A stretch of 43,039 nt of DNA from Escherichia phage SM_S24: the sequence record PP920554.1, one strand, 5' to 3'. The translations under genes were made by a program, and so were the position numbers. Shown here piece by piece: positions 3,512 to 43,039 of the stretch. The notes below the pieces were generated by a model. It did no database searches and was not told where the DNA came from. It saw nothing but the letters and a program-made list of their open reading frames with translations. Position 1 is the stretch's first letter; every line of letters starts with the position of its first letter.

Positions 3512-4598
3512 TCAATATATGGCGGATCGCATGATCCGCCGTCACATCTTCACCCAGCGCCTGAGCAATGACCAGGCGCGGAGGGTGCTGGCTATGTGGG
3601 AGAAGTTCCGGCCCACGTTACTGGGTAAGCTGACCGAGTTACTTGATGGCAAAAAGTCCATGAATAACAAAGCACTTACCACACTGTTAACGCAACTCGA
3701 CAAGACCGTCAAAACGGAACTGCGCACCGAGTTTAAGGCGTTGGCTGAAAGCCTTCAGGAGTTCGCCGACACCGAGGCTGATTATCTCGCCGACACATTA
3801 ACGGCAGCGATCCAGCCGGTGGTCGCCGTACCTGCGGTCGAGGTGGTTGGTGTAGTGACCGGTGCGCAGATCGCAGCGACGGCTATGAAAAACCCGTTCC
3901 AAGGTAATACTATGATGCAATGGCCTGACTCACTTTCTGAGTGGACCAGGACGCAGATCGGTAACCAGGTGCGAGCGGGATTCATCCAGGGCAAGCCAAC
4001 GATGGAAATTATCGCGGACGTGAGGCGCGCGCTAGGCGGTCGTAGTGCGCAAGCTATCTCGAGCGTTGTTAAGTCCGCAGTCAACCACTATGCGGCGACA
4101 GCCCGCGAATTAATGGTAAAAGCTAATGACGATATTCTCGAAGGTCGCCAATGGTTATCTACATTGGACACGCATACTTCTCCCATGTGCCAGCTACGCG
4201 ATCGCCTGTTTTATCCGGTTGATGTTACTCCCGACACCAAAGGAAAGCGCGGCGGGAAAGTGGTGGCTGGGTCACAATATGGCGCTGGTCCGGGCAAGCT
4301 GCATTATTGCTGCCGGTCGACGGAGACGTGGAAAGTTAAGGGCATGGAAGATTGGCCCAGTGGTAAGCGTCCGGCACTGAAGGCTGACGCGGGTAGATTG
4401 CTGAGTGAGCAGGTAGACGCGCAGACTGATTTCTTCTCATGGGTGCAGCGCCAGCCGCGCCATATCCTGGAAGAACTATACGGAGTGCAACGCGCCGACC
4501 AGATTATGCGCGGCGTGAAAGTGCCGAAGATGTTCACCGATTCAGGTGAACTGATGACTATCGCACAGCTTAAAAACCGGGGGTTATGGCGTGATTAA
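3495..4598 (+). CDS. head morphogenesis / minor capsid protein (SPP1 gp7 / Mu F-like position)
   Basis: 367 aa ORF overlapping the portal 3' end; synteny terL-portal-morphogenesis; alternative ATG at 3519. Confidence 0.5.
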   Translation: MARTINQYMADRMIRRHIFTQRLSNDQARRVLAMWEKFRPTLLGKLTELLDGKKSMNNKALTTLLTQLDKTVKTELRTEFKALAESLQEFADTEADYLADTLTAAIQPVVAVPAVEVVGVVTGAQIAATAMKNPFQGNTMMQWPDSLSEWTRTQIGNQVRAGFIQGKPTMEIIADVRRALGGRSAQAISSVVKSAVNHYAATARELMVKANDDILEGRQWLSTLDTHTSPMCQLRDRLFYPVDVTPDTKGKRGGKVVAGSQYGAGPGKLHYCCRSTETWKVKGMEDWPSGKRPALKADAGRLLSEQVDAQTDFFSWVQRQPRHILEELYGVQRADQIMRGVKVPKMFTDSGELMTIAQLKNRGLWRD

Positions 4599-4920
4599 AT
4601 ATGCATCGATTGGACTGGTTATCGGTCTGGCGGTAGGATTCTGGCTAGGTGACTCCTATCGCGCTGGCGTAGTGGCGGAGGCGGCGCAAGAAGCGCAAGC
4701 CAAAGCCCAACGGCAGCAAACTAAAGTTGTGGAGCGCTCCGTGCAGGCCGAACAGGCCCGCGACGTGGAATACCGGACTATCACGAAAGAGGTTGTTAAA
4801 TATGTTACGCGCCCTAACCGCCCTGATTGTAGTTTTGATGCTGAGCGCGTGCGGATCAAGCAACGCGCCGTTGATGCCGCTAACGGAGTCGGCACTGCGA
4901 CCGCCGTGCAAGTTCGATAG
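4591..4920 (+). CDS. i-spanin (Rz-like)
   Basis: 109 aa, GTG start with GGGGG RBS; N-terminal TM helix SIGLVIGLAVGFWLG then Ala/Gln-rich helical region; contains the embedded lipoprotein gene in the +1 frame. Confidence 0.6.
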   Translation: MIKYASIGLVIGLAVGFWLGDSYRAGVVAEAAQEAQAKAQRQQTKVVERSVQAEQARDVEYRTITKEVVKYVTRPNRPDCSFDAERVRIKQRAVDAANGVGTATAVQVR

Positions 4921-5032
4921 CCCGTCCGCAGACCCCGACGAGGATTTGATGATTGACGTGAAAAATATGGAATGCGGGGCGAAGCTAAGGGCGCAGGTGC
5001 TGGAGTTGCAGCAAATAATTAAGGGGCCGTAA
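4802..5032 (+). CDS. o-spanin (Rz1-like) outer-membrane lipoprotein
   Basis: 76 aa from ATG 4802 (RBS AAGAGG); signal peptide MLRALTALIVVLMLSAC with lipobox LSAC, Pro-rich mature part; starts inside Rz in another frame and runs past its stop (overlapped architecture). Confidence 0.65.
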   Translation: MLRALTALIVVLMLSACGSSNAPLMPLTESALRPPCKFDSPSADPDEDLMIDVKNMECGAKLRAQVLELQQIIKGP

Positions 5033-10438: not shown

Positions 10439-10468
10439 TTTGGTCGCTTAAATAGCGAGTGTTAATAT

Positions 10469-10491
10469 GGGGCCAGCACGGCCCCTTTTTT
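10469..10491 (+). terminator. intrinsic terminator after the major tail protein gene
   Basis: GGGGCC-AGCAC-GGCCCC followed by TTTTTT. Confidence 0.7.
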
Positions 10492-10507: not shown

Positions 10508-10870
10508 ATGGCTAAAGCACCACTCTTCACACTTGACCCAAAGCCGACCTTTAAGCTGCCGATTGAGATCCCGCGCCCTGGTGAGAACGAACCTGGCAAG
10601 ATGACGTTTACCGTCCGCCACCGCCCTATCGACGAATTTTCGCAAACCATGCAGGACACAGAACGGAAGCTGTCGGAATATGACGACAATGACCCGGACG
10701 GCTTTAACGTTATGGTCGAGGCCATCATGCACGTCGCGGAAGGCTGGAATCTGCCAGACGAATTTAACGCGGAGAACGTCCGCCGCCTGGTGGTCAACTA
10801 TCCACGCGCGTTCGGGGTGTTCCATACGTCGTACTATCTCGAACTGATGGGATTGCGTGAAAAAAACTAA
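10508..10870 (+). CDS. tail assembly chaperone (G-like)
   Basis: 120 aa from ATG 10508 (RBS GGAGAA); acidic small protein immediately upstream of the tape measure gene; ends at slippery A_AAA_AAC. Confidence 0.6.
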   Translation: MAKAPLFTLDPKPTFKLPIEIPRPGENEPGKMTFTVRHRPIDEFSQTMQDTERKLSEYDDNDPDGFNVMVEAIMHVAEGWNLPDEFNAENVRRLVVNYPRAFGVFHTSYYLELMGLREKN

Positions 10871-11569: not shown

Positions 11570-14212
11570 ATGGCAGATCAAGCGGCAGGCATCACGCTGA
11601 AGGCGGATGTCGCACAAATCAGAACGGCGAATACTGTGCTTGATTCATTCGCACAGAAATCCGAGAACACAGAAAACAAGGTTAAGAAATTAAACGACAC
11701 CCTCGGCAAATCCAAAAAGGTGACGAGTGACGCCGCGGGCGGAATGGAGAAGCTGGCGACTGAATCGCAGCGCGCTGCCGATGGCATGACGAAACAGGAG
11801 CGACTTGCCAACAGGTTAGGCATGTCGACCAAAAACCTGGGCTTTGCCTCGCGTAACGCCGCATTCCAGTTACAGGATATTGCGGTAACGCTTGAGATGG
11901 GTATGCCGGTGCACCGCGTTATGCTTCAGCAGTTACCACAGCTTACTGGGGCGTTCGGGGGATTTGGTAACACGCTGCGTTATGTCGCGGGCGTCCTCGG
12001 TCCGGTAGGGATCGGCATTGCAGCACTAACGGCAACTTTAGGCGTAGGGGTGGCAATTACGTCCCGCGCAGAGAACCAGGTCTCAGCGCTTAACAAGACG
12101 CTGGCGCTGTCAGGTAACATTTCCGGCCTAACGGCAAACCAGATCCTGGTGCTATCCGAGAACGCCGAGCGCATGGGCGGATCATTCCGCAAGACGCGTG
12201 ACACAATCCAGGCGCTGGCGGCGGCGGGTGTGAAAGCGGGGGCGGACTTCGGCGCGCTGGCGAAGGTTGTGAATGACTTCGCGAAGGCGTCTAATCAGCC
12301 GATCTCTGACGTGGTTGAATCCATCTCAAAATTGTCGAACGACCCAGTGGGCGGACTGCGTGCGCTGGCGGATAAGTATCATGTCGTTACCGAGGCGCAG
12401 ATCCAGCAGGTGCAATCGCTTGTAGATATGGGGCGTGAAACGGACGCGGTTGCTCTGGCTAACAAAACAGCCGCTGCGTCGTTCTCCAGCATGACCGATG
12501 AGGTAAAGTCCAACATGGGTACGCTTGAGCGGTCGATGAACGTAGTTACATCGGCAGCTAAATCTATGTGGGATGCCATCCTGGATGTGGGCCGCGCGCA
12601 GTCCTCGAATGAGTCCGAGATGAAAGCGCGTGAGTCCTTGCAGCGCATGACCACGGCGTACTATGCCGAGATGAGGGCGGTAAACGCTGCCGGTGGGGTG
12701 ATGACCGAAGCGCAGAAGGCGCGTATTAACATGCTTTACAGCGAACTGGTCGCCCAGGAAAAAGTGGTGGCGTCGCTCACCCTGCGTAACCGTGCTGAGC
12801 GAGACAACGCCCGCGCCGCAGACGAATCCGCAAAGGCGAACGAGGAGGCCAACCGCACTGCCCGTGACCGCGCCGCGTTCGAGAAGGAATACGCCACCAA
12901 CGCTAAGAAGCGCGCCGACGAGATCGCCCGCCTCAATTTGCTGAATAAGCGCGGCGTTATTGATGAGAAAGAACTAGCCGAGGCGGTGAAGCAGGTAAAC
13001 GAGCGGTACAAAGACCCAGCCCCGAAAAAGGCCGCGGCTGTTCGCGTGGATGCCGGTATGAAAATGCTGGAGGTCGCACGGAGCGAACTGGCACAGCTTC
13101 GAGAATCAGGCAAGCAGATCGAAGCCAACGCATCGACGCAGACCCGCACGCAACGCGCGCAAGCGGCCCTTAACAAGCTGATTGCCGACAACGAGCAGTT
13201 AATCGCTGCGAGCAAAGAAAGGGCGCTGACGGCAGCAGAGAAGCAGCAATTAGTCGAATTTGGACGCGTGAAGGAAGTCCGCGAGCAGATCGTCGAAGAA
13301 GCCAAATTGCTGGACGCGAAAGAGAAGCAGGTCAAGGCGCACGCGCAGATCGATGCCTTCGTTAAGAACCAGAACGCAGAGCTAAAAGCCACCGCCGCGG
13401 GCTATGCACTTTCCACTCGCGAAGCGGCTAACCTTCGCGAAGAATTGCAGCTAATTGACCGCCTTCGTCGTGTTGGCGCTAACGATACCGATATTGACCT
13501 GGCGGTGTCTAAGCTGCGCGAAGTGCAGGAAGCACAGACCGGGGCTAACGCCTCGCTATGGGATGGCTTCAGCCGCGGGCTTAAGGATAGCGTTGATGAA
13601 ATGGGTAACGGATATACGCAGATGACGACACTCACAAAATTCACGTTCGGCGCTATGCAGGACACGATGAACGAGTTTTTTGAGACTGGCAAGCTGAACG
13701 CAAAGGATATGGTTAAGTCCATCCTGAGCGAATTAATCAAGCTGGCTACCTCGCAGGCGTTCAAGTCCATCGTTAGCGCTTTCGGTGGTGACGGCGGCAA
13801 AAACGGATTGTTCGGCGCTATCTTCTCTGGCCTTACTAAGAATGCGGACGGCGGAGCGTACGCAGGAGGCAATCTCGCGGCCTATTCGGGGAAAGTGGTA
13901 AGCCAGCCTACCTTTTTCAGTTATGGCGTCCAGGCGTTCGCTAAGGGCGCTGGGTTGATGGGTGAGGCTGGACCCGAGGCCATCATGCCACTGAAGCGCG
14001 GGCCGGACGGGAAACTGGGCGTTGCCGCGTCTGGAGCAGGCGGTGGTATGGTCGTGACGACTAACGTTTACACGGGGACCGGTAAGACGGATACCAGTGT
14101 TGGCGGGCCGGACCCACGTACCGCGCAGGCGTTCGGCAAGCAAATCACCGAGGCGGTGAAGGCCGAGATCGTGAAGGCGACGAAACCGGGTGGTGTACTT
14201 TACAAACGATGA
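11570..14212 (+). CDS. tail tape measure protein
   Basis: 880 aa from ATG 11570 (RBS AAGGGG); long Ala/Gln/Glu-rich helical protein with hydrophobic segments and Gly-rich C-terminal region; position after G/GT. Confidence 0.85.
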   Translation: MADQAAGITLKADVAQIRTANTVLDSFAQKSENTENKVKKLNDTLGKSKKVTSDAAGGMEKLATESQRAADGMTKQERLANRLGMSTKNLGFASRNAAFQLQDIAVTLEMGMPVHRVMLQQLPQLTGAFGGFGNTLRYVAGVLGPVGIGIAALTATLGVGVAITSRAENQVSALNKTLALSGNISGLTANQILVLSENAERMGGSFRKTRDTIQALAAAGVKAGADFGALAKVVNDFAKASNQPISDVVESISKLSNDPVGGLRALADKYHVVTEAQIQQVQSLVDMGRETDAVALANKTAAASFSSMTDEVKSNMGTLERSMNVVTSAAKSMWDAILDVGRAQSSNESEMKARESLQRMTTAYYAEMRAVNAAGGVMTEAQKARINMLYSELVAQEKVVASLTLRNRAERDNARAADESAKANEEANRTARDRAAFEKEYATNAKKRADEIARLNLLNKRGVIDEKELAEAVKQVNERYKDPAPKKAAAVRVDAGMKMLEVARSELAQLRESGKQIEANASTQTRTQRAQAALNKLIADNEQLIAASKERALTAAEKQQLVEFGRVKEVREQIVEEAKLLDAKEKQVKAHAQIDAFVKNQNAELKATAAGYALSTREAANLREELQLIDRLRRVGANDTDIDLAVSKLREVQEAQTGANASLWDGFSRGLKDSVDEMGNGYTQMTTLTKFTFGAMQDTMNEFFETGKLNAKDMVKSILSELIKLATSQAFKSIVSAFGGDGGKNGLFGAIFSGLTKNADGGAYAGGNLAAYSGKVVSQPTFFSYGVQAFAKGAGLMGEAGPEAIMPLKRGPDGKLGVAASGAGGGMVVTTNVYTGTGKTDTSVGGPDPRTAQAFGKQITEAVKAEIVKATKPGGVLYKR

Positions 14213-14246
14213 TAAAATGGCCCTCACTACAACGTGGGGGCTTTTT

Positions 14247-14846
14247 ATGTCACAAGGTACAATCACACTAACGAAAGGAAGTAAGACCGTCACGGGCGCG
14301 GGAACGGCGTTCCTTAGCGAGATCGGTAAGGTACTCGTATTCGCCCGCATCGACGGCAACGACTACACCGGCAAAATTGCTGCATTCAACTCGAACACGG
14401 TCATTACTCTGAAAGATAACTGGGCTGGGCCAACGAAATCCGGTGCGGCATATGAGCTAATCGAAGCACACGACCCGCGATCAAACGAATGGCCCTATTA
14501 CTGGCACATGCAATTGCAGGGCGGTGGCGACGTGCAGTTAGCTTTCCGGTCCGAGGAATTGCAATTCGGTAATGGCTACGGACAGAACATCGCGGACGGC
14601 CCGAACGCCGAAACGAAACAGTTCCCCGTGCAATTCGTCGGGCTGACTACGGACAAGTGGTGCAACCCTAAACTGGTTTACAACTTCCTTCGCGGGCACT
14701 TCGTCAAGCCGTTTGTCGTCACCGCGCCGGATGGCGAAACAGGTTTATTCGTGGTCGAGCGTTCGAGCTTGTCGTACACGGACAACGGACACCTCACGGC
14801 AACCGTATCCGCCACCCTTAAGACTGCTATTGGATTCGTAAGATGA
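14247..14846 (+). CDS. distal/minor tail protein (lambda M position)
   Basis: 199 aa from ATG 14247; N-terminal GTITLTKGSKTVTGAGTAF fiber-like motif; first gene after tape measure. Confidence 0.5.
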   Translation: MSQGTITLTKGSKTVTGAGTAFLSEIGKVLVFARIDGNDYTGKIAAFNSNTVITLKDNWAGPTKSGAAYELIEAHDPRSNEWPYYWHMQLQGGGDVQLAFRSEELQFGNGYGQNIADGPNAETKQFPVQFVGLTTDKWCNPKLVYNFLRGHFVKPFVVTAPDGETGLFVVERSSLSYTDNGHLTATVSATLKTAIGFVR

Positions 14847-19900: not shown

Positions 19901-20398
19901 CAGTTCGGGCAGCAGTCCGCCGCAATCGAGCAGAAGATGACGTCCACGTTTAACCACTCCGGTGGTAGCGCCACATACAGCCTTAAAGCTGGCGTGACGT
20001 ATAACGGGACTTACTACGACGCCGGTATGCAGCTTTCCGTTGTGACGTCTGGCAGCGCGGTTAAATCCCGCATCGCGTTCAAGGCGGACCAGTTCTACAT
20101 CATGCATCCGTCCAATGGGACGCTGTCGTCTGCGTTTATTGTGGACGGTGGCGCGGTGTATATCGACACGGCACGCATCAAGAACGCGTCCATCAACTTC
20201 GCGCAGATCACAGACACGCTGCAATCGAATAACTACGACGGCAGCACGCGCGGATGGCGCTTAGGGAAAGATGGAACGTTTATCAACCTGGGCACCGGTA
20301 GCGGCGGCGGGATGAAACAGACGAACACAAGAATCAGCGTGAAGGACGGAAACGGCGTTCTCCGCGTGCAGATTGGTGAGCTTACTGGTAGCTGGTAG
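16979..20398 (+). CDS. central tail fiber / host specificity protein J-like
   Basis: 1139 aa; N-terminus HKGGGGKQHTPQE and the NYDP..YSGNWDGTFK..AWHWYD..RYALYQIAQRCDQ block align by eye with lambda gpJ; C-terminal ~250 aa differ and contain internal repeats. Confidence 0.9.
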   Translation: MTIIYDVTGHKGGGGKQHTPQETPDSLHSLAKIRILLALGEGEFESITSDSELRQRVYLDGTPIQNADLSENFPGARVEFRPGTQHQDVIHGFSAVESEQSVGVKLENGTPWVRQINDTSLDAVRIRIGIPALYTNEDNGDLVGGRIDYKIVVYTDNADPREFRFAAVGKTMSLYERDHRIELPPNVNTGWRVEVHRITADSTSAKVVNDIRVQSITEIIDARLRYPLTALLFVEFDAKAFQNIPRVSIKCKGRKVLVPNNYDPINHTYSGNWDGTFKRAWTDNPAWHWYDICITERFGLGRRIKPQMLNRYALYQIAQRCDQMVSDGNGGQEIRFKNDMYIQSQTDAWTVLKDLAAIFAGMTWWGNQMLNIVSDQPVAAVSHTITNASVIDGRFDYASGSQKTRYSTFAVAYGNPKNHYEDAIATGQRVELVRRHKINRLDITAIGCTRESEAQRRGHWALISNQLDQQVSFKVGMEGLFFIPGSVVAIADTNISGGFETRGGRLLSDPGTRTVLNTDSEITFRPGDKFLVRTDSGNVETREIASVNGNKVTLKTALDADPIPDQPFCVDGDDIQLQKFRITDLEYDDSTSTFSVRGIEYNDSKYDAVDNGARLDPGIFTQVPDGVMKGPESVTITPSQISSQGQLITNVDIVFPPVKDAVVYEIQWRRTSLQNMEIQWGNDWVNIPRTASNGAHIPNVFSGNYQARVRAIGMGEISSPWVSSAITPVEGRLGGLNAPIITNAISGLHQILWKWNHNNAATDISYTELEVRKTGETEWKFLTNVPYPGAEYAQTSLEFGIYQQLRARVADKIGNLSDWSAPFEGQVSDKVDEYMKGLDDEFLTSEDGKRFQEAINTIPQGIYESMLTDAQQLFNARAEYKGIYAEIKVAYNVAADAHQAVAQLETLIGTRLDDAEAAIHTLQTAQSTQEQAFAQYQQTVAAKFSEQEAAIQSVQTATADVAGALAEYKTQVAAQFGQQSAAIEQKMTSTFNHSGGSATYSLKAGVTYNGTYYDAGMQLSVVTSGSAVKSRIAFKADQFYIMHPSNGTLSSAFIVDGGAVYIDTARIKNASINFAQITDTLQSNNYDGSTRGWRLGKDGTFINLGTGSGGGMKQTNTRISVKDGNGVLRVQIGELTGSW

Positions 20399-20402
20399 TA
20401 TA

Positions 20403-20421
20403 GGGGCTTCGGCCCCTTTTT
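20403..20421 (+). terminator. intrinsic terminator after the J-like gene
   Basis: GGGGC-TTCG-GCCCC followed by TTTTT. Confidence 0.65.
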
Positions 20422-35090: not shown

Positions 35091-35120
35091 ATGATAGATT
35101 GGTTGCAGGATGGGTGTCAA
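35091..35120 (-). promoter_or_regulatory. leftward early promoter (sigma70-like)
   Basis: minus strand TTGACA-18 nt-TATCAT; TGCAACCAAT box inside the spacer. Confidence 0.55.
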
Positions 35121-35296: not shown

Positions 35297-35626
35297 ATGA
35301 ATATCAAAGAAGCAATTGAAGTGTTATCTAATGCAATCCGCGGCGAAGCGGGTAAATCCTGGTATTACACAAATGCGGTGGATACTCTGTTATTTGAAGT
35401 GTCCAGATTATCGCGTGCTGAGAAGGAGCTTACCGCGAAGCTGGAATTACTCAACGGTACGGCAGCAAGCAAGCTGCAAAAGCACAATGAAGAAATGGAA
35501 GAATACAAAAAACAGGTTATCCGTCTACGTGAGGAAGGTAAATCCTGGGCGATGATTGCCGAGTTGACCGGAATTAATCAGAGCACAGTGCGCTCCTGGG
35601 TACGCAATAATAAAACTTCTAAGTAA
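35297..35626 (+). CDS. HTH DNA-binding protein (putative transcriptional regulator)
   Basis: 109 aa, RBS AGGAG; C-terminal helix-turn-helix-like segment WAMIAELTGINQSTVRSWV; first rightward gene at the divergent promoter region. Confidence 0.55.
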   Translation: MNIKEAIEVLSNAIRGEAGKSWYYTNAVDTLLFEVSRLSRAEKELTAKLELLNGTAASKLQKHNEEMEEYKKQVIRLREEGKSWAMIAELTGINQSTVRSWVRNNKTSK

Positions 35627-35636
35627 GGCCACGGCA

Positions 35637-37901
35637 ATGAGCTTAATTAAATTCGCTGTAACAAGACCCGCTAAAAAAGGCGAAAAAGCCAGGGCGGAAA
35701 ACTTCCAGATGACTACCGAAGAGTTTTTCGAATTTATCAATGATGCGAAAGAAATCTCCTCGGTGCATATCAACAAAACGGAAGATAAAGCCGAGTATGC
35801 ACGCCGCAAGCGTAAGGCCGACGGCATCGTGGCGTATACCAGTGACGGATTGCGTCGCAAGACCAGTGCGGTGGACCGCTCGATCCTGTTCTTCGATATT
35901 GACCGTACTGACACCCGCACCCTACGCCGCTGCCGTAAGGCGTTCATCGACGCGGGACTGGAGCACGTCTTCCACACCACAACCGGCGACCGTCACCCAC
36001 TGAAAGGTGGAACGCGTTGCGCTCGCTTCCTGGTGTTGACCGACAAGCCTGTACCGGCTGAAGACCTGGGCCGTGTCCAGTATGCGCTATTACACCAACT
36101 GGGCCTGTCAGATGTGGACTTCGACGACTGCACGAAAGACACAAACCGCCTTATGTACCTACCACACCAGCAGTCTGTTATTAAGTGCCACTATGGCAAG
36201 CGCGCCCGCGTCCGTCGTCTGCTTCGCCTGGCTGACAAGCTGGGAGTTGAGAAAGAGGAAGTCCGCCGCGAACTGACCCAGGGCGACGACGCAGTGGCAG
36301 ACGGCATTCTGGACTGGTGCTTCCAGGCAGGATTCGAGGAGTTATCTTCCGGTCGGGGTTATGAAGTGCCGTGCCCGAACGAACATCTGCACAGCGGCGA
36401 AGGGTCGACGGCTATCATGGTCAAGGATGGCGAGATCCGTTTCAAGTGTATGCACACAGGCAACGAGTGTTGCTCGGAACTGAATAGGCACCAGCACCTG
36501 GCGCTACGTCTTATCGGGATCCCGGACCACCTGAACGTCGAGCCACACAATATGTCCCGTAAGCAAATCGCCGCCATCCTTCCGGGGCTGGACGACGAAG
36601 AAGTCGAATCCTTATATGAACATATTGTTGATGCAGTTGGCGACGGCGAAGAATACGGCGTGTGCACCGATGCAGATCTGGATAACGAGCCGGTTGCGCT
36701 GTTCAGTAAGCACGACCCGATTATCGAGGGGTTGATTAACTTTAAATCGACCTGGTACATGGCGGGTGAGTCGAATATCGGTAAGTCTTTCTACGTGCTG
36801 GGCCAGATGGGTGCGGTTGCCGCGGGGATTCCGTTCGGCGGTGCGAAGGTCGTCCAGTCTCATTGCTTCTATTTCGACGCGGAAGGTGGTGAAGCCTCCA
36901 ACCAGCGTAAGGAAGCACTGCAGATCAAATATGAGCACGACCTGGATAAGCTGCACATTATAGACCTGCAGTCACGCGGCTGGGATATCACCAGCAAATC
37001 AGGCTTGCGCGAAGTTATCAGCTTTATCAACCGCACCGCTAACGGCGAACCGGTTGGCCTGGTGGCGTTCGACTCTCTCAACCAGACTGTTGCGCTGCGG
37101 TCCGCCGATGCTAAACCGTTCGACGAGAACAACGCCAGCGATATGGGCGAAGTGGTAAAAGCGCTGAAAGCCATCGCGGAAAATACCGGCGGCAGTGCTG
37201 GCGTCATCCACCACCCGGCGAAGGGTGCAAACGGCAGCAGATCCCCCCGCGGGTCCGGCGCGCTGCATGGTGCTGTTGATTCTGCGTTCTTCCTTGAGCA
37301 ACCGGACGACAACCAGCCAGGCCAATTGAACCTGTATCACGAAAAGGCACGTAACGGCATCAAGCAAGCGCCGCGTGGCTTCGTCCTGCTCAAGTGCAAG
37401 GTGAAGGTAGATCTCCGCAAGTCAGAAGCGTTCGCGTCGCACCAGTCCACCAGCACCGGTCCGGACTTCGGCGACGTGGTTGCCGGATGGGACGTCAAGC
37501 CGATTGCCTCCACGCCACGCGACGAGACTCTCTACCTCGTACCGGTTGCCCTGGCACCGTTCGCTATTGAACAGGCGAAGGCCGCGGGCAAAGCAGCAGT
37601 TAAAGAAGAGAACACCGCCGGACCGCGCAACGAAAAAGAGAAAGTGCTCTATGCGGCACTGGAAAAACTGATGGAAGATAACCCGGACCATACTGGATTC
37701 AGTAAATCGGCAATTGTCCGCCAGGCTGGGCTGGCAAAAGGTGGCACTTCGACGAAGGCAATCGACGATATGGTGGAGCGAGGAGTGATAGGTTTTTACA
37801 CCGATCCGCACACCGGGGCCATCTATGGGTCGTCTAATTTGGTCATCAAATCGGATATACCCATCACGCTTTCAGCGACCGATGACGATTTAAAAGATTA
37901 A
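35637..37901 (+). CDS. primase-helicase (AEP-type primase, zinc-binding region, P-loop NTPase)
   Basis: 754 aa; N-terminal DxD-type motif ILFFDIDRTD, Cys/His cluster CPNEHLHSGE...CMHTGNEC, Walker A GESNIGKS and Walker B-like LVAFDSL; iteron array begins at its stop codon. Confidence 0.7.
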   Translation: MSLIKFAVTRPAKKGEKARAENFQMTTEEFFEFINDAKEISSVHINKTEDKAEYARRKRKADGIVAYTSDGLRRKTSAVDRSILFFDIDRTDTRTLRRCRKAFIDAGLEHVFHTTTGDRHPLKGGTRCARFLVLTDKPVPAEDLGRVQYALLHQLGLSDVDFDDCTKDTNRLMYLPHQQSVIKCHYGKRARVRRLLRLADKLGVEKEEVRRELTQGDDAVADGILDWCFQAGFEELSSGRGYEVPCPNEHLHSGEGSTAIMVKDGEIRFKCMHTGNECCSELNRHQHLALRLIGIPDHLNVEPHNMSRKQIAAILPGLDDEEVESLYEHIVDAVGDGEEYGVCTDADLDNEPVALFSKHDPIIEGLINFKSTWYMAGESNIGKSFYVLGQMGAVAAGIPFGGAKVVQSHCFYFDAEGGEASNQRKEALQIKYEHDLDKLHIIDLQSRGWDITSKSGLREVISFINRTANGEPVGLVAFDSLNQTVALRSADAKPFDENNASDMGEVVKALKAIAENTGGSAGVIHHPAKGANGSRSPRGSGALHGAVDSAFFLEQPDDNQPGQLNLYHEKARNGIKQAPRGFVLLKCKVKVDLRKSEAFASHQSTSTGPDFGDVVAGWDVKPIASTPRDETLYLVPVALAPFAIEQAKAAGKAAVKEENTAGPRNEKEKVLYAALEKLMEDNPDHTGFSKSAIVRQAGLAKGGTSTKAIDDMVERGVIGFYTDPHTGAIYGSSNLVIKSDIPITLSATDDDLKD

Positions 37902-38167
37902 ATTTTGCGCGCATTGGTCGCCGTTATGGGAATCCCCATATCGGTAAAAGATTAAATTTTGCGCGCATTGGTCGCCGTTATGGGAATCCCCATATCGGTA
38001 AAAGATTAAATTTTGCGCGCATTGGTTGCCATTTTGCGTGCTTTTAGCCGGTCGTTAAAAGATTAAATTTTGCGCGCATTGGTCGCCGTTATGGGAATCC
38101 CCATATCGGTAAAAGATTAAATTTTGCGCGCATTGGTTGCCATTTTGCGTGCTTTTAGCCGGTCGTA
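37892..38167. repeat. iteron array, candidate origin of replication
   Basis: five tandem 54-57 bp units (A-A-B-A-B) sharing core AAAAGATTAAATTTTGCGCGCATTGGT(C/T)GCC with the 8-bp palindrome TGCGCGCA; begins at the primase-helicase stop codon. Confidence 0.6.
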
Positions 38168-38194
38168 TTGGTTGCCGTGTAGTGTAAATATAAT
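38168..38194 (+). promoter_or_regulatory. promoter-like element upstream of GGGACA array B
   Basis: perfect TATAAT at about 38189-38194 with weak -35 (TTGGTT, 15-nt spacer) inside an ATTGGTTGCC box. Confidence 0.35.
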
Positions 38195-38224
38195 GAATAG
38201 TTATGCAGTTTTATTGCATAAAGT

Positions 38225-38330
38225 AAGCGGGACAAAAAGCGGGACAGACCAGGGGCGGGACAAAGCGGGACAGCACCCTGTCCCGCCCCGGATGACGCGG
38301 CCTGGCGAGGAGCGGGACAGCGGGACAGCA
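38225..38330 (+). repeat. array B of GCGGGACA(R) octamers
   Basis: copies at about 38227, 38239, 38255, 38265, 38312, 38321 plus inverted TGTCCCGC at 38279; preceded by a TTATGCA/TGCATAA inverted pair and a TATAAT box. Confidence 0.8.
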
Positions 38331-38383
38331 CCCCAGTCTTTCAGACTAGACGGGGGGTCTGGCACCCCCCTCGTCTGAGACTG
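38331..38383 (+). other. conserved imperfect hairpin element, copy 2
   Basis: CCCCAGTCTTTCAGACTAGACGGGGGG-TCTGGCA-CCCCCCTCGTCTGAGACTG; arms identical to copy 1. Confidence 0.75.
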
Positions 38384-38542
38384 CATAAAATCCGGGATTG
38401 CATAACGCACGGCAACAAGATGCGAATTGCGGTCGTCGATGAACTAGGCAACCAATGCGCGTTGCAGAATGGTGGGCGAAAAATGCAGTTTGCAGTTGCA
38501 GCAGATAGCGATCAACTTTTTCATGCGCGTGATTAATATTGG

Positions 38543-38571
38543 TTGCATTCACCCTGGCACCCTGCTATTTT
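38543..38571 (+). promoter_or_regulatory. promoter-like element upstream of the 38600 operon
   Basis: TTGCAT-17 nt-TATTTT; -35 inside ATTGGTTGCAT, second TTGGTTGCA just downstream; region nearly identical to the moron 5' region. Confidence 0.45.
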
Positions 38572-38599
38572 GGTTGCACACCAACAAGAGGACTGAACG

Positions 38600-38926
38600 A
38601 TGAGAGCGATTATCTGGAATTACGCAATGGCTATGGCGGCGGCACAAGAAGCGGCGGAGTTCGCCGGTGAAGGAGCGGAAGCGGTCGAAAGACTATCGGC
38701 AGCGTGGTCCGTTGTTCGCGTTACGCAGCAGGCCATCGCCTGTATGCTGGAGCGCCGCTTCGACACTATGGCAGAGATTCAGCCACTGGCGAACGCTATC
38801 CAGGATTACGCGCTTGCCTTTGCCCGTGAGCGCCTGGCGTATCGCTTCGGGATCGGCGAGACGGCAGTGACTAACGTCGCCCGGATTAAAGCCCAGCGTG
38901 AGCTATTCTCCCAGCTTGCGAAATAA
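38600..38926 (+). CDS. hypothetical protein
   Basis: 108 aa, RBS AAGAGGA 7 nt upstream; first gene after the second GGGACA array. Confidence 0.45.
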   Translation: MRAIIWNYAMAMAAAQEAAEFAGEGAEAVERLSAAWSVVRVTQQAIACMLERRFDTMAEIQPLANAIQDYALAFARERLAYRFGIGETAVTNVARIKAQRELFSQLAK

Positions 38927-38935
38927 GAGGCCAAA

Positions 38936-39205
38936 ATGACCCGTAGACGCGCAAAACAGCTTTCGTGGCATATTCCCCTGCATTGCATACGAATATGGGC
39001 TAAGAATGCGAATGCGGGGGATTCTGTATTCTGGTGTTATCGCGACGACGTTAAGCCGTTGACGCAGACTCGCTACTTGCACCAGTTCGCAGCACAACAC
39101 GATTTCAGGGTGCGGACTTCCTTGCAACCAACGGGAATACGTATTACATTACGCCGGAAGCCCGCCGTTGAGCGGGTAGGCAAACACTGGAGACTGAGCA
39201 AATGA
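38936..39205 (+). CDS. hypothetical basic protein
   Basis: 89 aa, RBS AAGAGG; Arg/Lys-rich. Confidence 0.45.
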   Translation: MTRRRAKQLSWHIPLHCIRIWAKNANAGDSVFWCYRDDVKPLTQTRYLHQFAAQHDFRVRTSLQPTGIRITLRRKPAVERVGKHWRLSK

Positions 39206-39354
39206 CACCAATGCAAATAACGCTAATGGCAGGGTATTCGCAGCAATTCGTAGACCTGTTATCTTGCATTGCGGACTATGAGATGGACGGCATCGCTACG
39301 GTGTGCGATGGCGACACGAAGACTGTCGACGAGATTGAGGAGACTGAGCAATGA
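39202..39354 (+). CDS. hypothetical small protein
   Basis: 50 aa, ATG 39202 with GGAG upstream, ATGA coupling to the next gene; below the track size cutoff. Confidence 0.3.
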   Translation: MTPMQITLMAGYSQQFVDLLSCIADYEMDGIATVCDGDTKTVDEIEETEQ

Positions 39355-39923
39355 AATTACTATTCCGCCGTAAAGCAGATGGCTACCTAATGCGGCCGAT
39401 CCAGGCCCTTGCTACATGCGTGCGCTTGCGCCATGTACACAGCGGACTTGAGTGCCTGGCAGATACGGTTCACCTACCGGCAAACTTTGACGTACTCACA
39501 CATGATATTGAGCGCGGCGATGTTCTGCGTGACATTCGCGACGGGCAGCTATGGATCGTGGAACGCACCTACCGGAACGGCCTGCGTATGCAGACCCGCA
39601 AGGGCGGCGTAGTGGGTAACGTTCAGAGGGGTATGACTTACTTCGGCCTTGTCAACTACGAACGAGTGGGCCGCAAATACTGCCTACGCAACCGCCAGCC
39701 TCATGACCGCGTTGAGTTCCGCAAGTCGCAGCCCGCCTATGCCACCTACGACGCCCACCAGGTGCAGGCGAGGATGAAACGCACCGCGCACGAAATCGTC
39801 AATCGCTTTGATGCCGTGACAAACGCACAGCGCCGTGCGCAGGAATACGGCGTTGGATTCATCCGGGTGGAACGAGACGGCAGCATGAAGGCCATCGACC
39901 CGCGCTCGGTGATTCTGAAATGA
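39351..39923 (+). CDS. hypothetical protein
   Basis: 190 aa, RBS GAGGAG; no motif recognised. Confidence 0.45.
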   Translation: MKLLFRRKADGYLMRPIQALATCVRLRHVHSGLECLADTVHLPANFDVLTHDIERGDVLRDIRDGQLWIVERTYRNGLRMQTRKGGVVGNVQRGMTYFGLVNYERVGRKYCLRNRQPHDRVEFRKSQPAYATYDAHQVQARMKRTAHEIVNRFDAVTNAQRRAQEYGVGFIRVERDGSMKAIDPRSVILK

Positions 39924-40060
39924 GTGCGACGATCCGCGATATGCTTCAGCATAACCGCTTTGAGATAGGCGGTCGGGTATTTCGCAATTACTTCGTGGCG
40001 CGGGCATGGGCGCGCCATATTGGCAAACCAGAGGGGGCAATACGATGCTACACGATTTGA
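39920..40060 (+). CDS. hypothetical small protein
   Basis: 46 aa, ATGA coupling with the upstream gene; hand-translated, below the track cutoff. Confidence 0.25.
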   Translation: MSATIRDMLQHNRFEIGGRVFRNYFVARAWARHIGKPEGAIRCYTI

Positions 40061-40332
40061 TATATTGGTTTGGATTGGGGTGCGCGACACTCTTTGCCAC
40101 GGTGCTGGCGCTGTTGGTATGGGTGTTCCTGATTTGGCCCGCGGTGGAGGCAGCCAGCATTACCCGCATGACGTTCCAGATATACAAGCGCCGTGGCATC
40201 ACTGAGCACCCTACCAGGTTGCGCATGTGGTGGCTATGGTATCGGGATATGATAGGGGGCCGGATGTTCGAGGCCGTCCGATCGGAAGGGTGGGAGTGGA
40301 AAGGCGTCGGCAAGTGGTCCATTTTCGATTAA
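40045..40332 (+). CDS. small membrane protein (hypothetical)
   Basis: 95 aa from ATG 40045 (RBS GAGGGGG); hydrophobic helix LGCATLFATVLALLVWVFLIW. Confidence 0.35.
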   Translation: MLHDLIYWFGLGCATLFATVLALLVWVFLIWPAVEAASITRMTFQIYKRRGITEHPTRLRMWWLWYRDMIGGRMFEAVRSEGWEWKGVGKWSIFD

Positions 40333-40343
40333 TTATGCAAGCG

Positions 40344-40352
40344 TGATATAGT
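40344..40352 (+). promoter_or_regulatory. extended -10-like element (TGaTATAGT) inside the 5' arm of the pre-holin hairpin
   Basis: TG, one nt, TATAGT; a transcript started here would begin within the hairpin stem. Confidence 0.3.
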
Positions 40353-40384
40353 CCCAGTGAGCTAAAACTTACTGGGACTTTTTT
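40350..40384 (+). terminator. intrinsic terminator hairpin immediately upstream of the holin start codon
   Basis: AGTCCCAGTGAG-CTAAAA-CTTACTGGGACT followed by TTTTTT; the T-run ends at the holin ATG. Confidence 0.6.
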
Positions 40385-40675
40385 ATGGATAAGCTAAACG
40401 AGTGGTTATTTGCCCTCGCATGTCTGGCTGGCGGCTTCGTAGGCGCACGCATTCATGGCGAGGCTACGAAAGGGCCGCTAAACTTCGTTTTATATATCGT
40501 AGTTGGCTTCCTGTGTGCCATATTTGGTGCGCCAGCTATCGCCGAGTGGGCGGGCTTATCTGGCGAGCGCACTGTCGCCGGTTTGGGCTTCGTAACTGCA
40601 ATCTTCTGGATGCCAATAGCCGCCCGGATCAGGGGGACTATTGAGTCGTTCCGACTTCCGGGGGGCGCAAAATGA
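40385..40675 (+). CDS. holin (putative)
   Basis: 96 aa with two to three hydrophobic segments; immediately upstream of the endolysin gene and preceded by a terminator hairpin. Confidence 0.5.
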   Translation: MDKLNEWLFALACLAGGFVGARIHGEATKGPLNFVLYIVVGFLCAIFGAPAIAEWAGLSGERTVAGLGFVTAIFWMPIAARIRGTIESFRLPGGAK

Positions 40676-40917
40676 GTATCACCGTCCTTTTGTTTGTTAT
40701 CATCGGGGCTTCGTCCCTGTTTAACGTGTATGCGCCGTCCGTTCAGGATGGCTTCTTCGGTCGGGTGTTATATCTGCTTACGGCGATGGTCTGCATTATC
40801 GGACTGTTGCAAACCGGAGACGTATCTGACGCCACCTGGACCGCGTTAATCTGGTTGTTTGCATTGCGCACGCTGCGTAATGCTGTTCTAAATGGGGTAA
40901 AACATGCGATTCAGTGA
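40672..40917 (+). CDS. holin/antiholin-like small membrane protein
   Basis: 81 aa with two hydrophobic helices; overlaps both the upstream holin and the endolysin start. Confidence 0.4.
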   Translation: MSITVLLFVIIGASSLFNVYAPSVQDGFFGRVLYLLTAMVCIIGLLQTGDVSDATWTALIWLFALRTLRNAVLNGVKHAIQ

Positions 40918-41395
40918 CAACGGTCTAAGATTTACGGCAGCATGGGAGCAATTCAGCCCAGTGCCGTATTTTGCGACTAAGAAAGAGCAGGCACGCGGCC
41001 TGTACACCTGGGGCTATGGGCACACCGGCACTAATCCGCCGCGGAGCATTACCCGTGCGGAAGCACTGGAGCTACTCAAGCGCGACGTGGCGTATGCCGA
41101 AAACTGGGTGAACAAGTACGCACACCCGAGCATCAATCAGGCGCAATTCGACGCGCTGGTGGACCTGGTTATCAATGCCGGTCCAGGTCCGATCATGCCG
41201 GACAACATCGCCAACGACTTTGACGACGCGGTGCGCCTGGGTGACTGGGCGAAGGTCCGTGCGACTCTGCCGCAGTTCCGCAAGCAAGGCGGGGAAGTGC
41301 TGAAAGGGCTGGTCCGTCGAGCAATCGGCAGGCAGGCGCTATTCGATGGTAAGCAGTGGGACGTTGCCGAGAAAATCGGTCGTAACGCAGCATAA
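40904..41395 (+). CDS. endolysin, lysozyme-like (GH24-type)
   Basis: 163 aa; TAAWEQF...GLYTWGYGHTG signature resembling T4/lambda-type lysozymes; lysis-cassette position. Confidence 0.8.
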   Translation: MRFSDNGLRFTAAWEQFSPVPYFATKKEQARGLYTWGYGHTGTNPPRSITRAEALELLKRDVAYAENWVNKYAHPSINQAQFDALVDLVINAGPGPIMPDNIANDFDDAVRLGDWAKVRATLPQFRKQGGEVLKGLVRRAIGRQALFDGKQWDVAEKIGRNAA

Positions 41396-41411: not shown

Positions 41412-41573
41412 ATGCTAAAAAGTATTCTTGATCATAATGCCGACGCGCTCGCCGCGCTGGCTAAAACCGAAGACCCAGGCGCACGCGCCATTATCGCGGA
41501 CACTATCAGTCACGCTGGCGTCTTTGACGCGAAGCTGCCGAGTCCGCCACCGCCCGCAGAGCCAGAAGAGTAA
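41412..41573 (+). CDS. hypothetical small protein
   Basis: 53 aa (MLKSILDHNADALAALAKTEDPGARAIIADTISHAGVFDAKLPSPPPPAEPEE), followed by an intrinsic terminator. Confidence 0.3.
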   Translation: MLKSILDHNADALAALAKTEDPGARAIIADTISHAGVFDAKLPSPPPPAEPEE

Positions 41574-41578
41574 ACCAC

Positions 41579-41604
41579 AAGCCCGGTTAATTCCGGGCTT
41601 TTTA
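41579..41604 (+). terminator. intrinsic terminator after the lysis cassette
   Basis: AGCCCGG-TTAATT-CCGGGCT followed by TTTTAT. Confidence 0.6.
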
Positions 41605-41608
41605 TTGC

Positions 41609-41638
41609 TTGACTTGCAACCAATTAATAGCTCATACT
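41609..41638 (+). promoter_or_regulatory. promoter-like element upstream of the leader-like peptide and HTH-phosphoesterase gene
   Basis: TTGACT then TGCAACCAAT in the spacer, -10-like CATACT, second TGCGACCAAT downstream. Confidence 0.4.
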
Positions 41639-41668: not shown

Positions 41669-41749
41669 ATGGCACGTAATGATATTTGGGTATTGGCAAT
41701 CTGGTCAGCCGCGGGATTTATCGGTATGGTTATTTGCGAATTGATATAG
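41669..41749 (+). CDS. hydrophobic mini-ORF (leader-like peptide)
   Basis: 26 aa (MARNDIWVLAIWSAAGFIGMVICELI) with RBS AGGAG 9 nt upstream, followed by a perfect 9-bp hairpin; may be regulatory rather than a stable protein. Confidence 0.2.
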   Translation: MARNDIWVLAIWSAAGFIGMVICELI

Positions 41750-41810
41750 CCCGCCGCCATACGGACCGTGGTATATTGTCCACGGTCCACTAATCAGGAA
41801 TTAATTAAAT

Positions 41811-42953
41811 ATGCACCCGCAAACTAAAATTACCGATGAGCAATTGATCGCAGAAATTCAGGCAGGGACTACGGTTAAAGATATTGCGAAGAAATACGGG
41901 ATTGCCCTACGCAATGTTTATATGCGGAAAGCCCGCCTGTCGAAAAAAGGCATTGGACACGGCAACGATGCCGTAATACGCAAGCGCGTTGCCGATGGGT
42001 TTGGGGTTAAGCGCGTATCGGCCCTGGTGCGCGGCAATGGCGAAGAGGTCATGTCGTGGGTCATCACTGAGCAGGACAAAGAGCGCCAACTCGAAGCCAT
42101 GCGCGCTGTTGTCGAGGGTATGAACAGCGAAATCACACCGGCAGCGCCAGTAAAAGCCCCGCCAGTACCGATCCAGGCGCTAGACTTGCTCAACCTGTAC
42201 ACCGTGTCAGACTTCCACCTGGGCATGTTGGCATGGGGCGAGGAGACTGGCGAAGACTGGGATATGGCGATCGCCGAAGACCTGTTCTACCGCTGGTTTG
42301 TCGAAGCCTTCGCACGCGCCCCGGACGCAGGCACTGCCGTGATCAATATCCTCGGCGATATGGCGCACTTTGATAGCCTTGATGCCGTCACACCGGCAAG
42401 CGGTCACGTATTGGACGCCGACACCCGATACCAGAAGTTAGTCCGCTACATGATCCGCATGGTGCGCAACGTGGTAGACCTAGCGCTGCAAAAACACCAC
42501 AAAGTCAAACTGCTAATCGTCCAGGGTAATCATGACGAGTCAGGCATGATTTGGCTTGCTGAGATGTTCAACACGCTGTACGAGAACGAGCCGCGCGTCG
42601 ATGTGGATACGTCCCCGGACGTCTACAAAATGGTGCAGCACGGTAAGACCACGCTATTCTTCCACCACGGGCACAAAGCGCGCTTCGATGCTATCGAAAC
42701 CGTCATGATTTCTAAATTCAGACAGGCGTTCGGGTCGAGCGAATACAGCTACGCGCATGTCGGTCACTTGCACCACCAGAAGATTGTTGAATCCCGCAAC
42801 ATGATTGTTGAACAGCACCGGACCCTCGCAGCGAAAGACGCATATGCCAGCCGTGGTGGTTGGATGTCCGGTCGCAGTGCCAACGTAATCACCTATAGCG
42901 CCAACTACGGCGAAGTGGCGCGCTTAACCATTAGCCCGGAAATGTTGAAGTAA
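41811..42953 (+). CDS. HTH domain + calcineurin-like metallophosphoesterase (SbcD/Mre11-like motif set)
   Basis: 380 aa; N-terminal HTH-like TVKDIAKKYGIALRNVYMRK; motifs SDFHLG, GDMAHFD, QGNHDE, FHHGH, GHLHHQ in the canonical metallophosphoesterase order. Confidence 0.55.
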   Translation: MHPQTKITDEQLIAEIQAGTTVKDIAKKYGIALRNVYMRKARLSKKGIGHGNDAVIRKRVADGFGVKRVSALVRGNGEEVMSWVITEQDKERQLEAMRAVVEGMNSEITPAAPVKAPPVPIQALDLLNLYTVSDFHLGMLAWGEETGEDWDMAIAEDLFYRWFVEAFARAPDAGTAVINILGDMAHFDSLDAVTPASGHVLDADTRYQKLVRYMIRMVRNVVDLALQKHHKVKLLIVQGNHDESGMIWLAEMFNTLYENEPRVDVDTSPDVYKMVQHGKTTLFFHHGHKARFDAIETVMISKFRQAFGSSEYSYAHVGHLHHQKIVESRNMIVEQHRTLAAKDAYASRGGWMSGRSANVITYSANYGEVARLTISPEMLK

Positions 42954-43039
42954 CGGCAACCCATAAGCCTCCCAGCCTGCCGATTTGGTGGGCTTTTTTG
43001 TGCCTGTTATAATCCCCTTAGATGGCAGGGCCGTCTCCT

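Follow-up and report, generated by a model that had tools for sequence, protein, structure and literature searches.

A putative extended -10 promoter abutting the terminator hairpin before the holin gene of Escherichia phage SM_S24, and its recurrence at tail-gene boundaries

How is a lysis gene expressed when the only ribosome site available to it lies in the stem of a transcription terminator? This question is raised by the genome of Escherichia phage SM_S24 (sequence record PP920554.1), of which 43,039 nucleotides (nt) were analysed and are referred to here as the window. A hairpin followed by a run of T ends directly at the start codon of the holin gene, which opens the lysis cassette (Table 1). 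The reading favoured here, with a probability of about 0.55, is that the 52-nt gap before the holin gene would act as a composite boundary module of three overlapping signals: an intrinsic terminator, an occluded ribosome site and an internal extended -10 promoter, TGATATAGT. We infer termination, promoter firing, the start position and any temporal regulation from sequence. The terminator role as such is not new, being annotated already for the homologous hairpin in the GenBank record of PTXU06, as a putative terminator predicted by ARNold. What is likely new is the merging of a control of the type known from gene e of phage T4 with an intrinsic terminator.

The hairpin comprises 12 pairs, including six G-C and one G.U (40359/40370), with a perfect part of 9 base pairs (bp), and its six T extend to 40384, next to the ATG at 40385. 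These features bear out the earlier note on this DNA, which had been made from the letters alone and had described a stem of 9-12 bp with a T-run abutting the holin start. In a pattern scan it is the longest-stemmed terminator-like site between 38000 and 43039, and the hairpin alone (-19.3 kcal/mol) is the most stable among six plus-strand terminator hairpins that were folded. The surrounding 79 nt (40322-40400) fold at -24.8 kcal/mol (RNAfold; z = -4.89), a value equalled by 0 of 200 shuffled sequences. On the minus strand the hairpin is followed by ATATCACG, and thus the terminator would work one way only; a bidirectional terminator was rejected for want of a T-run on that strand, where the G.U pair would also turn into a C.A mismatch. 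By its sequence, the structure is very probably a strong, canonical and unidirectional intrinsic terminator. The sole Rfam match covering the element, the cyanobacterial small RNA NsiR1 (29.3 bits against a gathering threshold of 39, E = 0.008), was rejected as a generic resemblance to terminator hairpins.

The same structure holds the ribosome site of the holin gene. GGGA, 7 nt 5′ of the ATG, is the sole purine run near enough to serve as a Shine-Dalgarno (SD) sequence, as the earlier note had also concluded, and it is a weak one, with a duplex energy of -3.9 kcal/mol against the anti-SD sequence. The ATG at 40385 is the sole plausible start of the gene; relatives differ by 1-2 nt in the T-run right before it. 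Folding of an RNA that contains both arms gives a probability of being unpaired of 0.00 for GGGA and 0.03 for the AUG, in keeping with the earlier proposal that read-through transcripts would have the holin ribosome site occluded. RNAs starting at 40357-40361 were folded as well, and in the RNA that starts at 40359 only 3 nt of the 5′ arm are left and these probabilities are 0.58 and 0.73. Translational coupling to the upstream open reading frame (ORF) was rejected, since its stop codon (TAA, 40330-40332) is separated from the stem by 17 nt and from the holin ATG by 52 nt.

Directly upstream of the stem lies the element that might resolve this arrangement. TGATATAGT has a TG at -15/-14, then one base, then a hexamer that matches TATAAT at five of six positions. 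The earlier note had placed this box inside the 5′ arm, which needs correcting: only its last three bases (AGT) fall within the arm, and the TG and TAT stand immediately before it. The best -35 match is three of six, no better than random (mean 2.37), which is compatible with an extended -10 promoter. Nine other extended -10 sites in intergenic DNA likewise have no -35 better than random, and the ten are a class apart from the TTGACA-bearing sites of the control region. The predicted transcription start falls in the last bases of the 5′ arm. The further idea that a transcript begun there would escape the hairpin stands as to geometry and folding, the start itself being a prediction. Between the terminator and the ATG there is no space for another promoter. 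A repeated promoter word specific to this phage was rejected, as TTATGCAAGCGTGATATAGT occurs once in the window even when three mismatches are allowed, and no long repeated motif was found in the window. A further extended -10-like sequence, TGATATATT at 40058-40066, lies inside the ORF 40045-40332; it is absent from the TGnTAnnnT matches of phage PaulFeyerabend and is probably due to chance.

Taken together, these features suggest how the gap could work. The rightward unit would be fed by a -35/-10 promoter-like site at ~35238, and probably also by an extended -10 site at 38563, and the intrinsic terminator would end it, with the RNA arriving from upstream finishing at about 40384-40388. Any RNA that reads through would be translationally silent for the holin, because the ribosome site is built into the 3′ arm and the U-tract. 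The third signal, a -35-less sigma-70 promoter of the extended -10 type, would start a separate RNA at about 40359, at the top of the 5′ arm. Since this RNA lacks the 5′ arm, it would be neither terminated nor occluded, and it would bear a 26-nt unstructured, A/U-rich leader. Through this three-signal module, holin synthesis would be uncoupled from upstream transcription and made dependent on a weak local promoter, and the rate at which holin accumulates would set the lysis time. No antiterminator would be needed, because the predicted start lies inside the hairpin. The PHROG and Pfam scans of neighbouring ORFs likewise yielded no Q-like antiterminator or regulator, as the earlier note had found none: the ORFs between 38600 and 40332 lack Pfam matches and belong to PHROG families of unknown function.

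Conservation carries much of the argument. For the 2.2-kb stretch around the holin start there are matches in 156 phage records, with identities of 80-95%. Nearly all come from Escherichia phages of the genus Dhillonvirus, and the window is itself a Dhillonvirus, an HK578-like virulent coliphage (siphophage). Twenty-three Dhillonvirus sequences were read, including the window; 17 were aligned for variability, and five further ones were sampled as the least similar GenBank matches. TGATATAGT is invariant in all 23. Among the 17, the 52-nt gap varies at three sites, of which two are in the loop, one is in the spacer and none is in the 5′ arm; the proportion of variable sites is 18.8% for the holin gene and 43.8% for the upstream ORFs. 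Within the element, the loop is the sole part in which close relatives differ, at 40362 (C/A) and 40364 (A/G); PaulFeyerabend shares the hairpin and the extended -10 element and has one more T in its T-run. The five most divergent records keep both arms as well as TGATATAGT, and vary in the loop, the spacer and the length of the T-run, which is 6-8 in relatives; Sodalis phage SO-1 has an additional A after the stem (GGGACA).

A second genus allows the signals to be told apart. In Kagunaviruses (K1G-like phages), whose holins are 47% identical, the upstream region is recognisably homologous and reads cgTGcTATCCTCCAG-(22 nt)-CTGGAGGAT-tcatc-TTG. Alignment of the two genera at the stem start and upstream leaves C-G-T-G-n-T-A-T-n-n-T invariant: T-15, G-14, T-12, A-11, T-10 and T-7 are shared, and -13, -9 and -8 vary. 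This profile matches the information content of a sigma-70 extended -10 element, as judged from the alignment. In four of the outer stem pairs both bases have changed in such a way that pairing is preserved (C-G to T-A, T-A to C-G, G-C to C-G and A-T to T-A), as seen when the stems are anchored on their shared CCAG/CTGG core; in the MAFFT alignment the Kagunavirus 5′ arm is displaced by one base. In one lineage an A-to-G change gives a G.U pair, and in another the stem reaches 13 bp through two changes. Changes compatible with G.U pairing point to a structure of plus-strand RNA rather than to a DNA operator. The Kagunavirus hairpin has a 22-nt loop and no U-tract, and is therefore not expected to be a terminator. 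It covers a strong SD sequence, GGAGGA, whose probability of being unpaired is 0.01 in read-through RNA and 0.60 in RNA from the predicted start. In Pantoea phage MED16, which carries a more distant holin homologue, the order is terminator, then TGCTATCGT, then holin gene. Since the motif there lies after the terminator, it appears to travel with the holin gene wherever the hairpin sits.

Upstream of the Kagunavirus holin, phage fBC-Eco01 (locus L017, 1133-1146; also L037-L052) has a small conserved palindrome, TAGGATAATTCCTA or TAAGATAATTCCTA, just 5′ of the -10 element in the -35/spacer region. The conserved block begins at this palindrome even when the upstream gene differs, encoding either a hypothetical protein or an HslV-like protease.

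The layout before the holin gene recurs at three boundaries between structural genes (Table 1). In the window, the motif ends between -3 and +2 nt from the hairpin start at four of eight strong plus-strand terminators. When the motif was relocated at random 200,000 times, no trial gave as many as four; with intergenic DNA alone considered, P is conservatively estimated at 1.6e-5. In all four modules a start 7 nt after the hexamer would lie either in the loop or where the 5′ arm ends. The module after the tape-measure gene is like the holin site, in that its T-run abuts an ATG and the G-run of its 3′ arm is the SD sequence, whose probability of being unpaired is 0.00 when the RNA reads through from upstream and 0.41-0.45 when it begins at the predicted start. 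At the modules starting at 10460 and 20393, only escape from termination would be at stake, because the SD sequence lies outside the hairpin. Relatives keep the modules, while their hairpins change with compensation and the n of TGn varies (at the 10460 module). Phage Ioannina provides a natural control: after its J-like gene the downstream genes lie on the other strand, and there the hairpin is kept and the motif, now TGGTAAAAC, has lost T-7.

Other phages define how far the pattern extends. In PaulFeyerabend, 13 of 67 TGnTAnnnT sites fall in the intergenic 6.1% of the genome, and nine of these 13 lie upstream of, and co-directional with, the next gene start, at distances of 29-73 nt for the eight that were computed. 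K1G has no TGnTAnnnT beside any predicted terminator, and the strict motif is therefore not universal; apart from the holin hairpin, all that this phage has is a perfect TATAAT located 3 nt ahead of the hairpin after its capsid gene.

Two of the sister modules call for separate remarks. In the IMG/VR Dhillonviruses L064 and L065, the homologue of 14210-14246 has a degraded T-run (ATTTTCT, ATCTTCT) and keeps the extended -10 element, the hairpin and the G-run SD sequence; at this boundary between tape-measure and minor-tail genes, hairpin and promoter seem more constrained than termination. Upstream of the 10460 module, positions 10441-10468 are TTAAATAGCGAG-TGTTAATAT and include a small inverted repeat, TCGCT/AGCGA. 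This stretch is similar to a 21-nt direct repeat, aaATAGCACnnnTTGnTAAAA, that was seen before T1 hairpins (locus L059, 38973 and 41980). PMC11447400 gives this repeat at 21 places in phage TLS and leaves its function open. The TLS/T1 repeat may be the same kind of -35-less promoter.

Several observations weigh against an internal promoter. The window contains five matches to TGNTATANT where 2.7 are expected, and 16 of 100 shuffled sequences reach five; the significance of TGATATAGT thus derives from its position, recurrence and conservation, and not from its count. Two of the four modules have a stop codon overlapping the motif (TGA at 14210 and TAG at 20396), which somewhat relaxes the estimate of chance given above. 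The stretch between the -10 hexamer and the predicted start is C-rich (CCCAGT), and C-rich discriminators make for short-lived open complexes through their contacts with sigma region 1.2. The promoter may therefore be weak, which would suit, the analysis suggests, a holin whose accumulation rate sets the lysis time. Nothing indicates why a sigma-70 promoter would stay silent early in infection. A scan from -6 to +30 nt relative to hairpin starts in T1, K1G and Ioannina shows -10-like hexamers, most of them without a TG, to be clustered: 13 of the 20 occurrences lie no more than 3 nt from a hairpin start. An A/T-rich ‘A-tract’ is common 5′ of terminator hairpins and could by itself enrich TAnnnT, so part of the -10 enrichment could be a property of terminators. 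However, the TG, the position-specific conservation, the order in MED16 and the loss in Ioannina argue against this as the whole story. The literature searched yielded neither mapped transcript ends (5′ or 3′) nor results from reporters or from in vitro transcription for Dhillonvirus, no transcript maps for Kagunavirus, and no description of promoters abutting terminator hairpins.

These points bear on a first alternative, in which the hairpin is a terminator only, TGATATAGT is its A/T-rich flank, and the lysis genes depend on the fraction of RNA polymerase passing the terminator, holin translation being damped by the hairpin. The hairpin would then end the upstream unit and protect its 3′ end. 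We regard this as unlikely, although it accounts for a good deal: the hairpin is of textbook form and annotated by ARNold in PTXU06, the count of the motif alone is within chance, hexamers, mostly without a TG, are enriched before hairpins in the three other phages, and the helix can be extended with CGUGA/UUAUG (RNAfold). However, the most stable of six folded hairpins, followed by six U and with the ribosome site fully paired, would leave almost no holin to be made by read-through. A mere flank would also not be expected to have a TG in all four modules of the window, with n varying and TG and TA..T constant, nor to keep TG-n-TAT-nn-T before a Kagunavirus hairpin that is no terminator, nor to stand after the terminator in MED16, nor to be lost in Ioannina exactly where a downstream co-directional gene is absent.

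Two further readings of the inverted repeat are set apart by the compensatory changes and G.U pairs. These changes speak for plus-strand RNA structure and so would fit an RNA switch without an internal promoter, in which every holin mRNA would include the hairpin, its 5′ arm would be opened or removed by, for example, an endonuclease, an RNA-binding protein of the phage or a helicase, and the conserved upstream bases would act at the RNA level; the Kagunavirus version is a pure SD-sequestering hairpin, and structures at holin starts are known, for instance the sdi stem-loop of lambda S. This alternative is markedly improbable, however, as the Dhillonvirus hairpin with its U-tract would terminate most transcripts and leave little substrate, and as it explains neither the sigma-70 extended -10 profile of the conserved unpaired bases nor the same motif before generic GC hairpins at three other boundaries. 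The other reading, an operator bound by a dimeric phage regulator over -10 to +20 and repressing until late, can point to the overlap of the inverted repeat with the proposed promoter, to another extended -10 element (41769) within a perfect 9-bp inverted repeat, and to the helix-turn-helix protein encoded by the first early gene. Here the same substitutions count on the other side: the stem has a G.T pair, the G.U-compatible changes of relatives break the DNA symmetry, and arm sequences have been replaced with compensation between genera. Moreover, the T-run and geometry are those of a terminator, and the sister hairpins are unrelated GC clamps that offer no common operator sequence, all of which makes an operator highly unlikely.

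The closest analogue of the three-signal module is found in phage T4. As reviewed in PMC3014915, the T4 genes e (lysozyme), soc, 49 and I-TevI have late promoters within the 5′ strand of a hairpin that sequesters the ribosome site of earlier, longer transcripts (McPheeters et al., 1986). Like gene e, the SM_S24 holin gene is a lysis gene downstream of earlier co-directional transcription, with SD sequence and AUG in a helix of the long RNA, and with a putative -35-less promoter in or next to the DNA of the 5′ strand, whose own RNA could not form the helix and would be translated. Unlike gene e, the helix here is also a full intrinsic terminator with a U-tract abutting the ATG, and the promoter would be a sigma-70-like extended -10 element and not the gp55-dependent TATAAATA that T4 uses with gp55/gp33. 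Scans of the neighbouring proteins against PHROG and Pfam turned up neither an alternative sigma factor nor a gp55-like protein. A further difference is that the layout is reused here at three structural-gene boundaries, two of them without involvement of a ribosome site. The likeness to gene e is one of mechanism only, with no sequence homology, and the SM_S24 element is an analogue and not a member of that group.

Lambdoid phages share the strong intrinsic terminator between upstream transcription and the holin gene, in their pR′-tR′-Q arrangement. In lambda, however, pR′ lies ~190 nt upstream of tR′, and transcripts begun at pR′ end at the terminator if RNA polymerase has not been modified by Q, whereas the predicted start here is inside the hairpin; the present phage is also virulent. 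A lambda-like pR′-tR′-Q scheme was rejected because the PHROG and Pfam scans of neighbouring ORFs gave no Q-like protein and the predicted start is within the terminator. The sdi of lambda S is comparable as a stem-loop immediately 5′ of the holin start that affects access to the ribosome site, yet the SM_S24 hairpin far exceeds it in strength and has a U-tract directly after it. A dual start of the lambda type was rejected, because the N-terminus, MDKLNEWLF, has no second Met near the start.

T1 offers a parallel of another kind, with many terminators between co-directional structural genes, each paired with a promoter (PMC11447400). It also has -10 hexamers directly before some of its terminator hairpins, at 10545, 16107 and 28568. 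The idea published for T1 (2004 work cited in PMC11447400) differs in that promoters are placed within modules, and neither an overlap in which the start lies inside the hairpin nor a fusion with the ribosome site was found described in the accessible portion of that source. Compared with ordinary intrinsic terminators, the element has the usual GC-rich stem, 6-nt loop, U-tract and A/T-rich 5′ flank; unlike an ordinary A-tract, this flank is TG-n-TATAGT and is conserved position by position, as a promoter element would be.

Table 1. Position of the proposed holin boundary module, its sister modules and the surrounding features in the window
Feature	Position	Strand	Details
Extended -10 element TGATATAGT	40344-40352	+	TG 40344-40345, hexamer TATAGT 40347-40352; proposed lysis promoter
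Predicted transcription start	40358-40361	+	G40359 or A40360 likeliest; usual sigma-70 spacing, 6-9 nt after the -10 hexamer
5′ arm AGTCCCAGTGAG	40350-40361	+	also fills the stretch from -10 hexamer to start (discriminator) of the proposed promoter
Loop CTAAAA	40362-40367	+	
3′ arm CTTACTGGGACT	40368-40379	+	holds GGGA 40374-40377
T-run, six T	40379-40384	+	first T is the last stem base; ends at ATG 40385
Holin-family gene	40385-40675	+	96 aa; opens the lysis cassette
Module after major tail protein gene	10460-10491	+	TGTTAATAT, GGGGCC-agcac-GGCCCC, T6; SD downstream of T-run
Module after tape-measure gene	14210-14249	+	TGATAAAAT, GGCCCTCAC-tacaac-GTGGGGGCT, T-run, ATG 14247
Module after J-like tail-tip gene	20393-20421	+	TGGTAGTAT, aGGGGC-ttcg-GCCCCt, T-run
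Usual order, for contrast	42974-43013	+	terminator 42974-42994 plus T-run, then extended -10 TGTTATAAT 43005-43013, ahead of terminase genes
Structural genes	about 23 to 22.7 kb	+	
Replication genes	reaching about 35.1 kb	-	
Divergent control region	35120 (-) and 35238 (+)		after replication genes; promoter-like sites with consensus -35 TTGACA
Rightward unit	35297-40332	+	all genes on plus strand; runs into the hairpin before the holin gene
Last gene of rightward unit	40045-40332	+	95 aa, predicted membrane protein, PHROG 2531 (unknown function)
Second holin-like gene	40672-40917	+	
Endolysin	40904-41395	+	
Small ORF, end of lysis cassette	41412-41573	+	
Intrinsic terminator closing lysis cassette	41579-41605	+	
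Promoter-like site TTGACT-18-CATACT	41609-41638		directly 3′ of the cassette terminator
Exonuclease gene	41811-42953		follows lysis cassette; terminase genes next, spanning the window end

If the model is correct, Dhillonviruses control their first lysis gene by a single 41-nt element (40344-40384) that stops upstream transcription, silences the translation of leak-through RNA and starts a translatable mRNA of its own, and Kagunaviruses do likewise in a terminator-free form. Both genera are common coliphages used in phage collections and therapy work. The principle known from T4 gene e would then extend to sigma-70 promoters and intrinsic terminators. Its reuse at tail genes, together with the T1 hexamers before hairpins, suggests a general and compact way of segmenting operons in siphophages. 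Annotation pipelines would miss this layout, because promoters are sought after terminators and not before them. Such an element would also be a ready-made insulator for synthetic biology, combining terminator, promoter and ribosome site, and a concrete natural system in which to test how RNA polymerase is recycled once it has terminated.

A bolder proposal is that the four modules are terminate-and-restart devices, possibly with a temporal switch that is independent of sigma region 4; this is speculative and, on balance, improbable. Single-molecule work has found that E. coli RNA polymerase stays on DNA after RNA release (PMC6978380 and PMC10372574). In a restart, the polymerase would slide back ~25-35 bp, rebind sigma and begin again at the overlapping -35-less promoter. 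Long operons would in this way be cut into separate mRNAs, each protected by a hairpin at its 3′ end and beginning with a clean 5′ end that can be translated, with no need for RNases and no loss of polymerase flux. As for timing, the early promoter-like sites at 35120 (-) and 35238 (+) bear the consensus TTGACA, and the other intergenic ones examined are mostly -35-less extended -10 sites. An AsiA-like block of sigma region 4 could drive a temporal switch, because the later extended -10 sites need no region 4. The first gene of the rightward early unit (35297-35626) encodes a protein of 109 aa with a C-terminal helix-turn-helix, which scores 29.1 bits for Sigma70_r4_2 against a Pfam cut-off of 25.7 and is also above the cut-off for HTH_23. 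From this domain match, the product is a candidate regulator of the early-to-late switch.

The assignments of the genes flanking the module come from homology. The ORF at 40385-40675 matches PHROG 2359, ‘holin’, at E = 2.8e-31 and has no Pfam match; relatives annotate it as holin too. The start of the preceding ORF, 40045-40332, agrees with the annotation of its homologues in PTXU06 and PaulFeyerabend. By homology with gp05 and gp06 of PaulFeyerabend, the spanin genes are among the head genes at ~4590-5030. On the circular map they lie ~8 kb further downstream than the holin-endolysin cassette, so that the lysis functions would be divided over two transcription units.

Beyond the lysis cassette, two small features were noticed. 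Downstream of the promoter-like site at 41609-41638 lies a 26-codon ORF, MARNDIWVLAIWSAAGFIGMVICELI (41670-41750), with a good SD sequence, GAGGAG; its product looks like a single transmembrane helix, and it is unannotated in the relatives examined. Upstream of the exonuclease gene, the extended -10 element TGGTATATT (41769-41777) stands within a perfect 9-bp inverted repeat, GGACCGTGG / CCACGGTCC (41764-41788), with its TG in the 5′ arm, its TATATT in the loop and the SD sequence AGGA (41796-41799) outside. The repeat might serve as an operator or form a further hairpin that encloses a transcription start. It is imperfect in PaulFeyerabend and unrecognisable in Ioannina, and the -10 element is kept in both.

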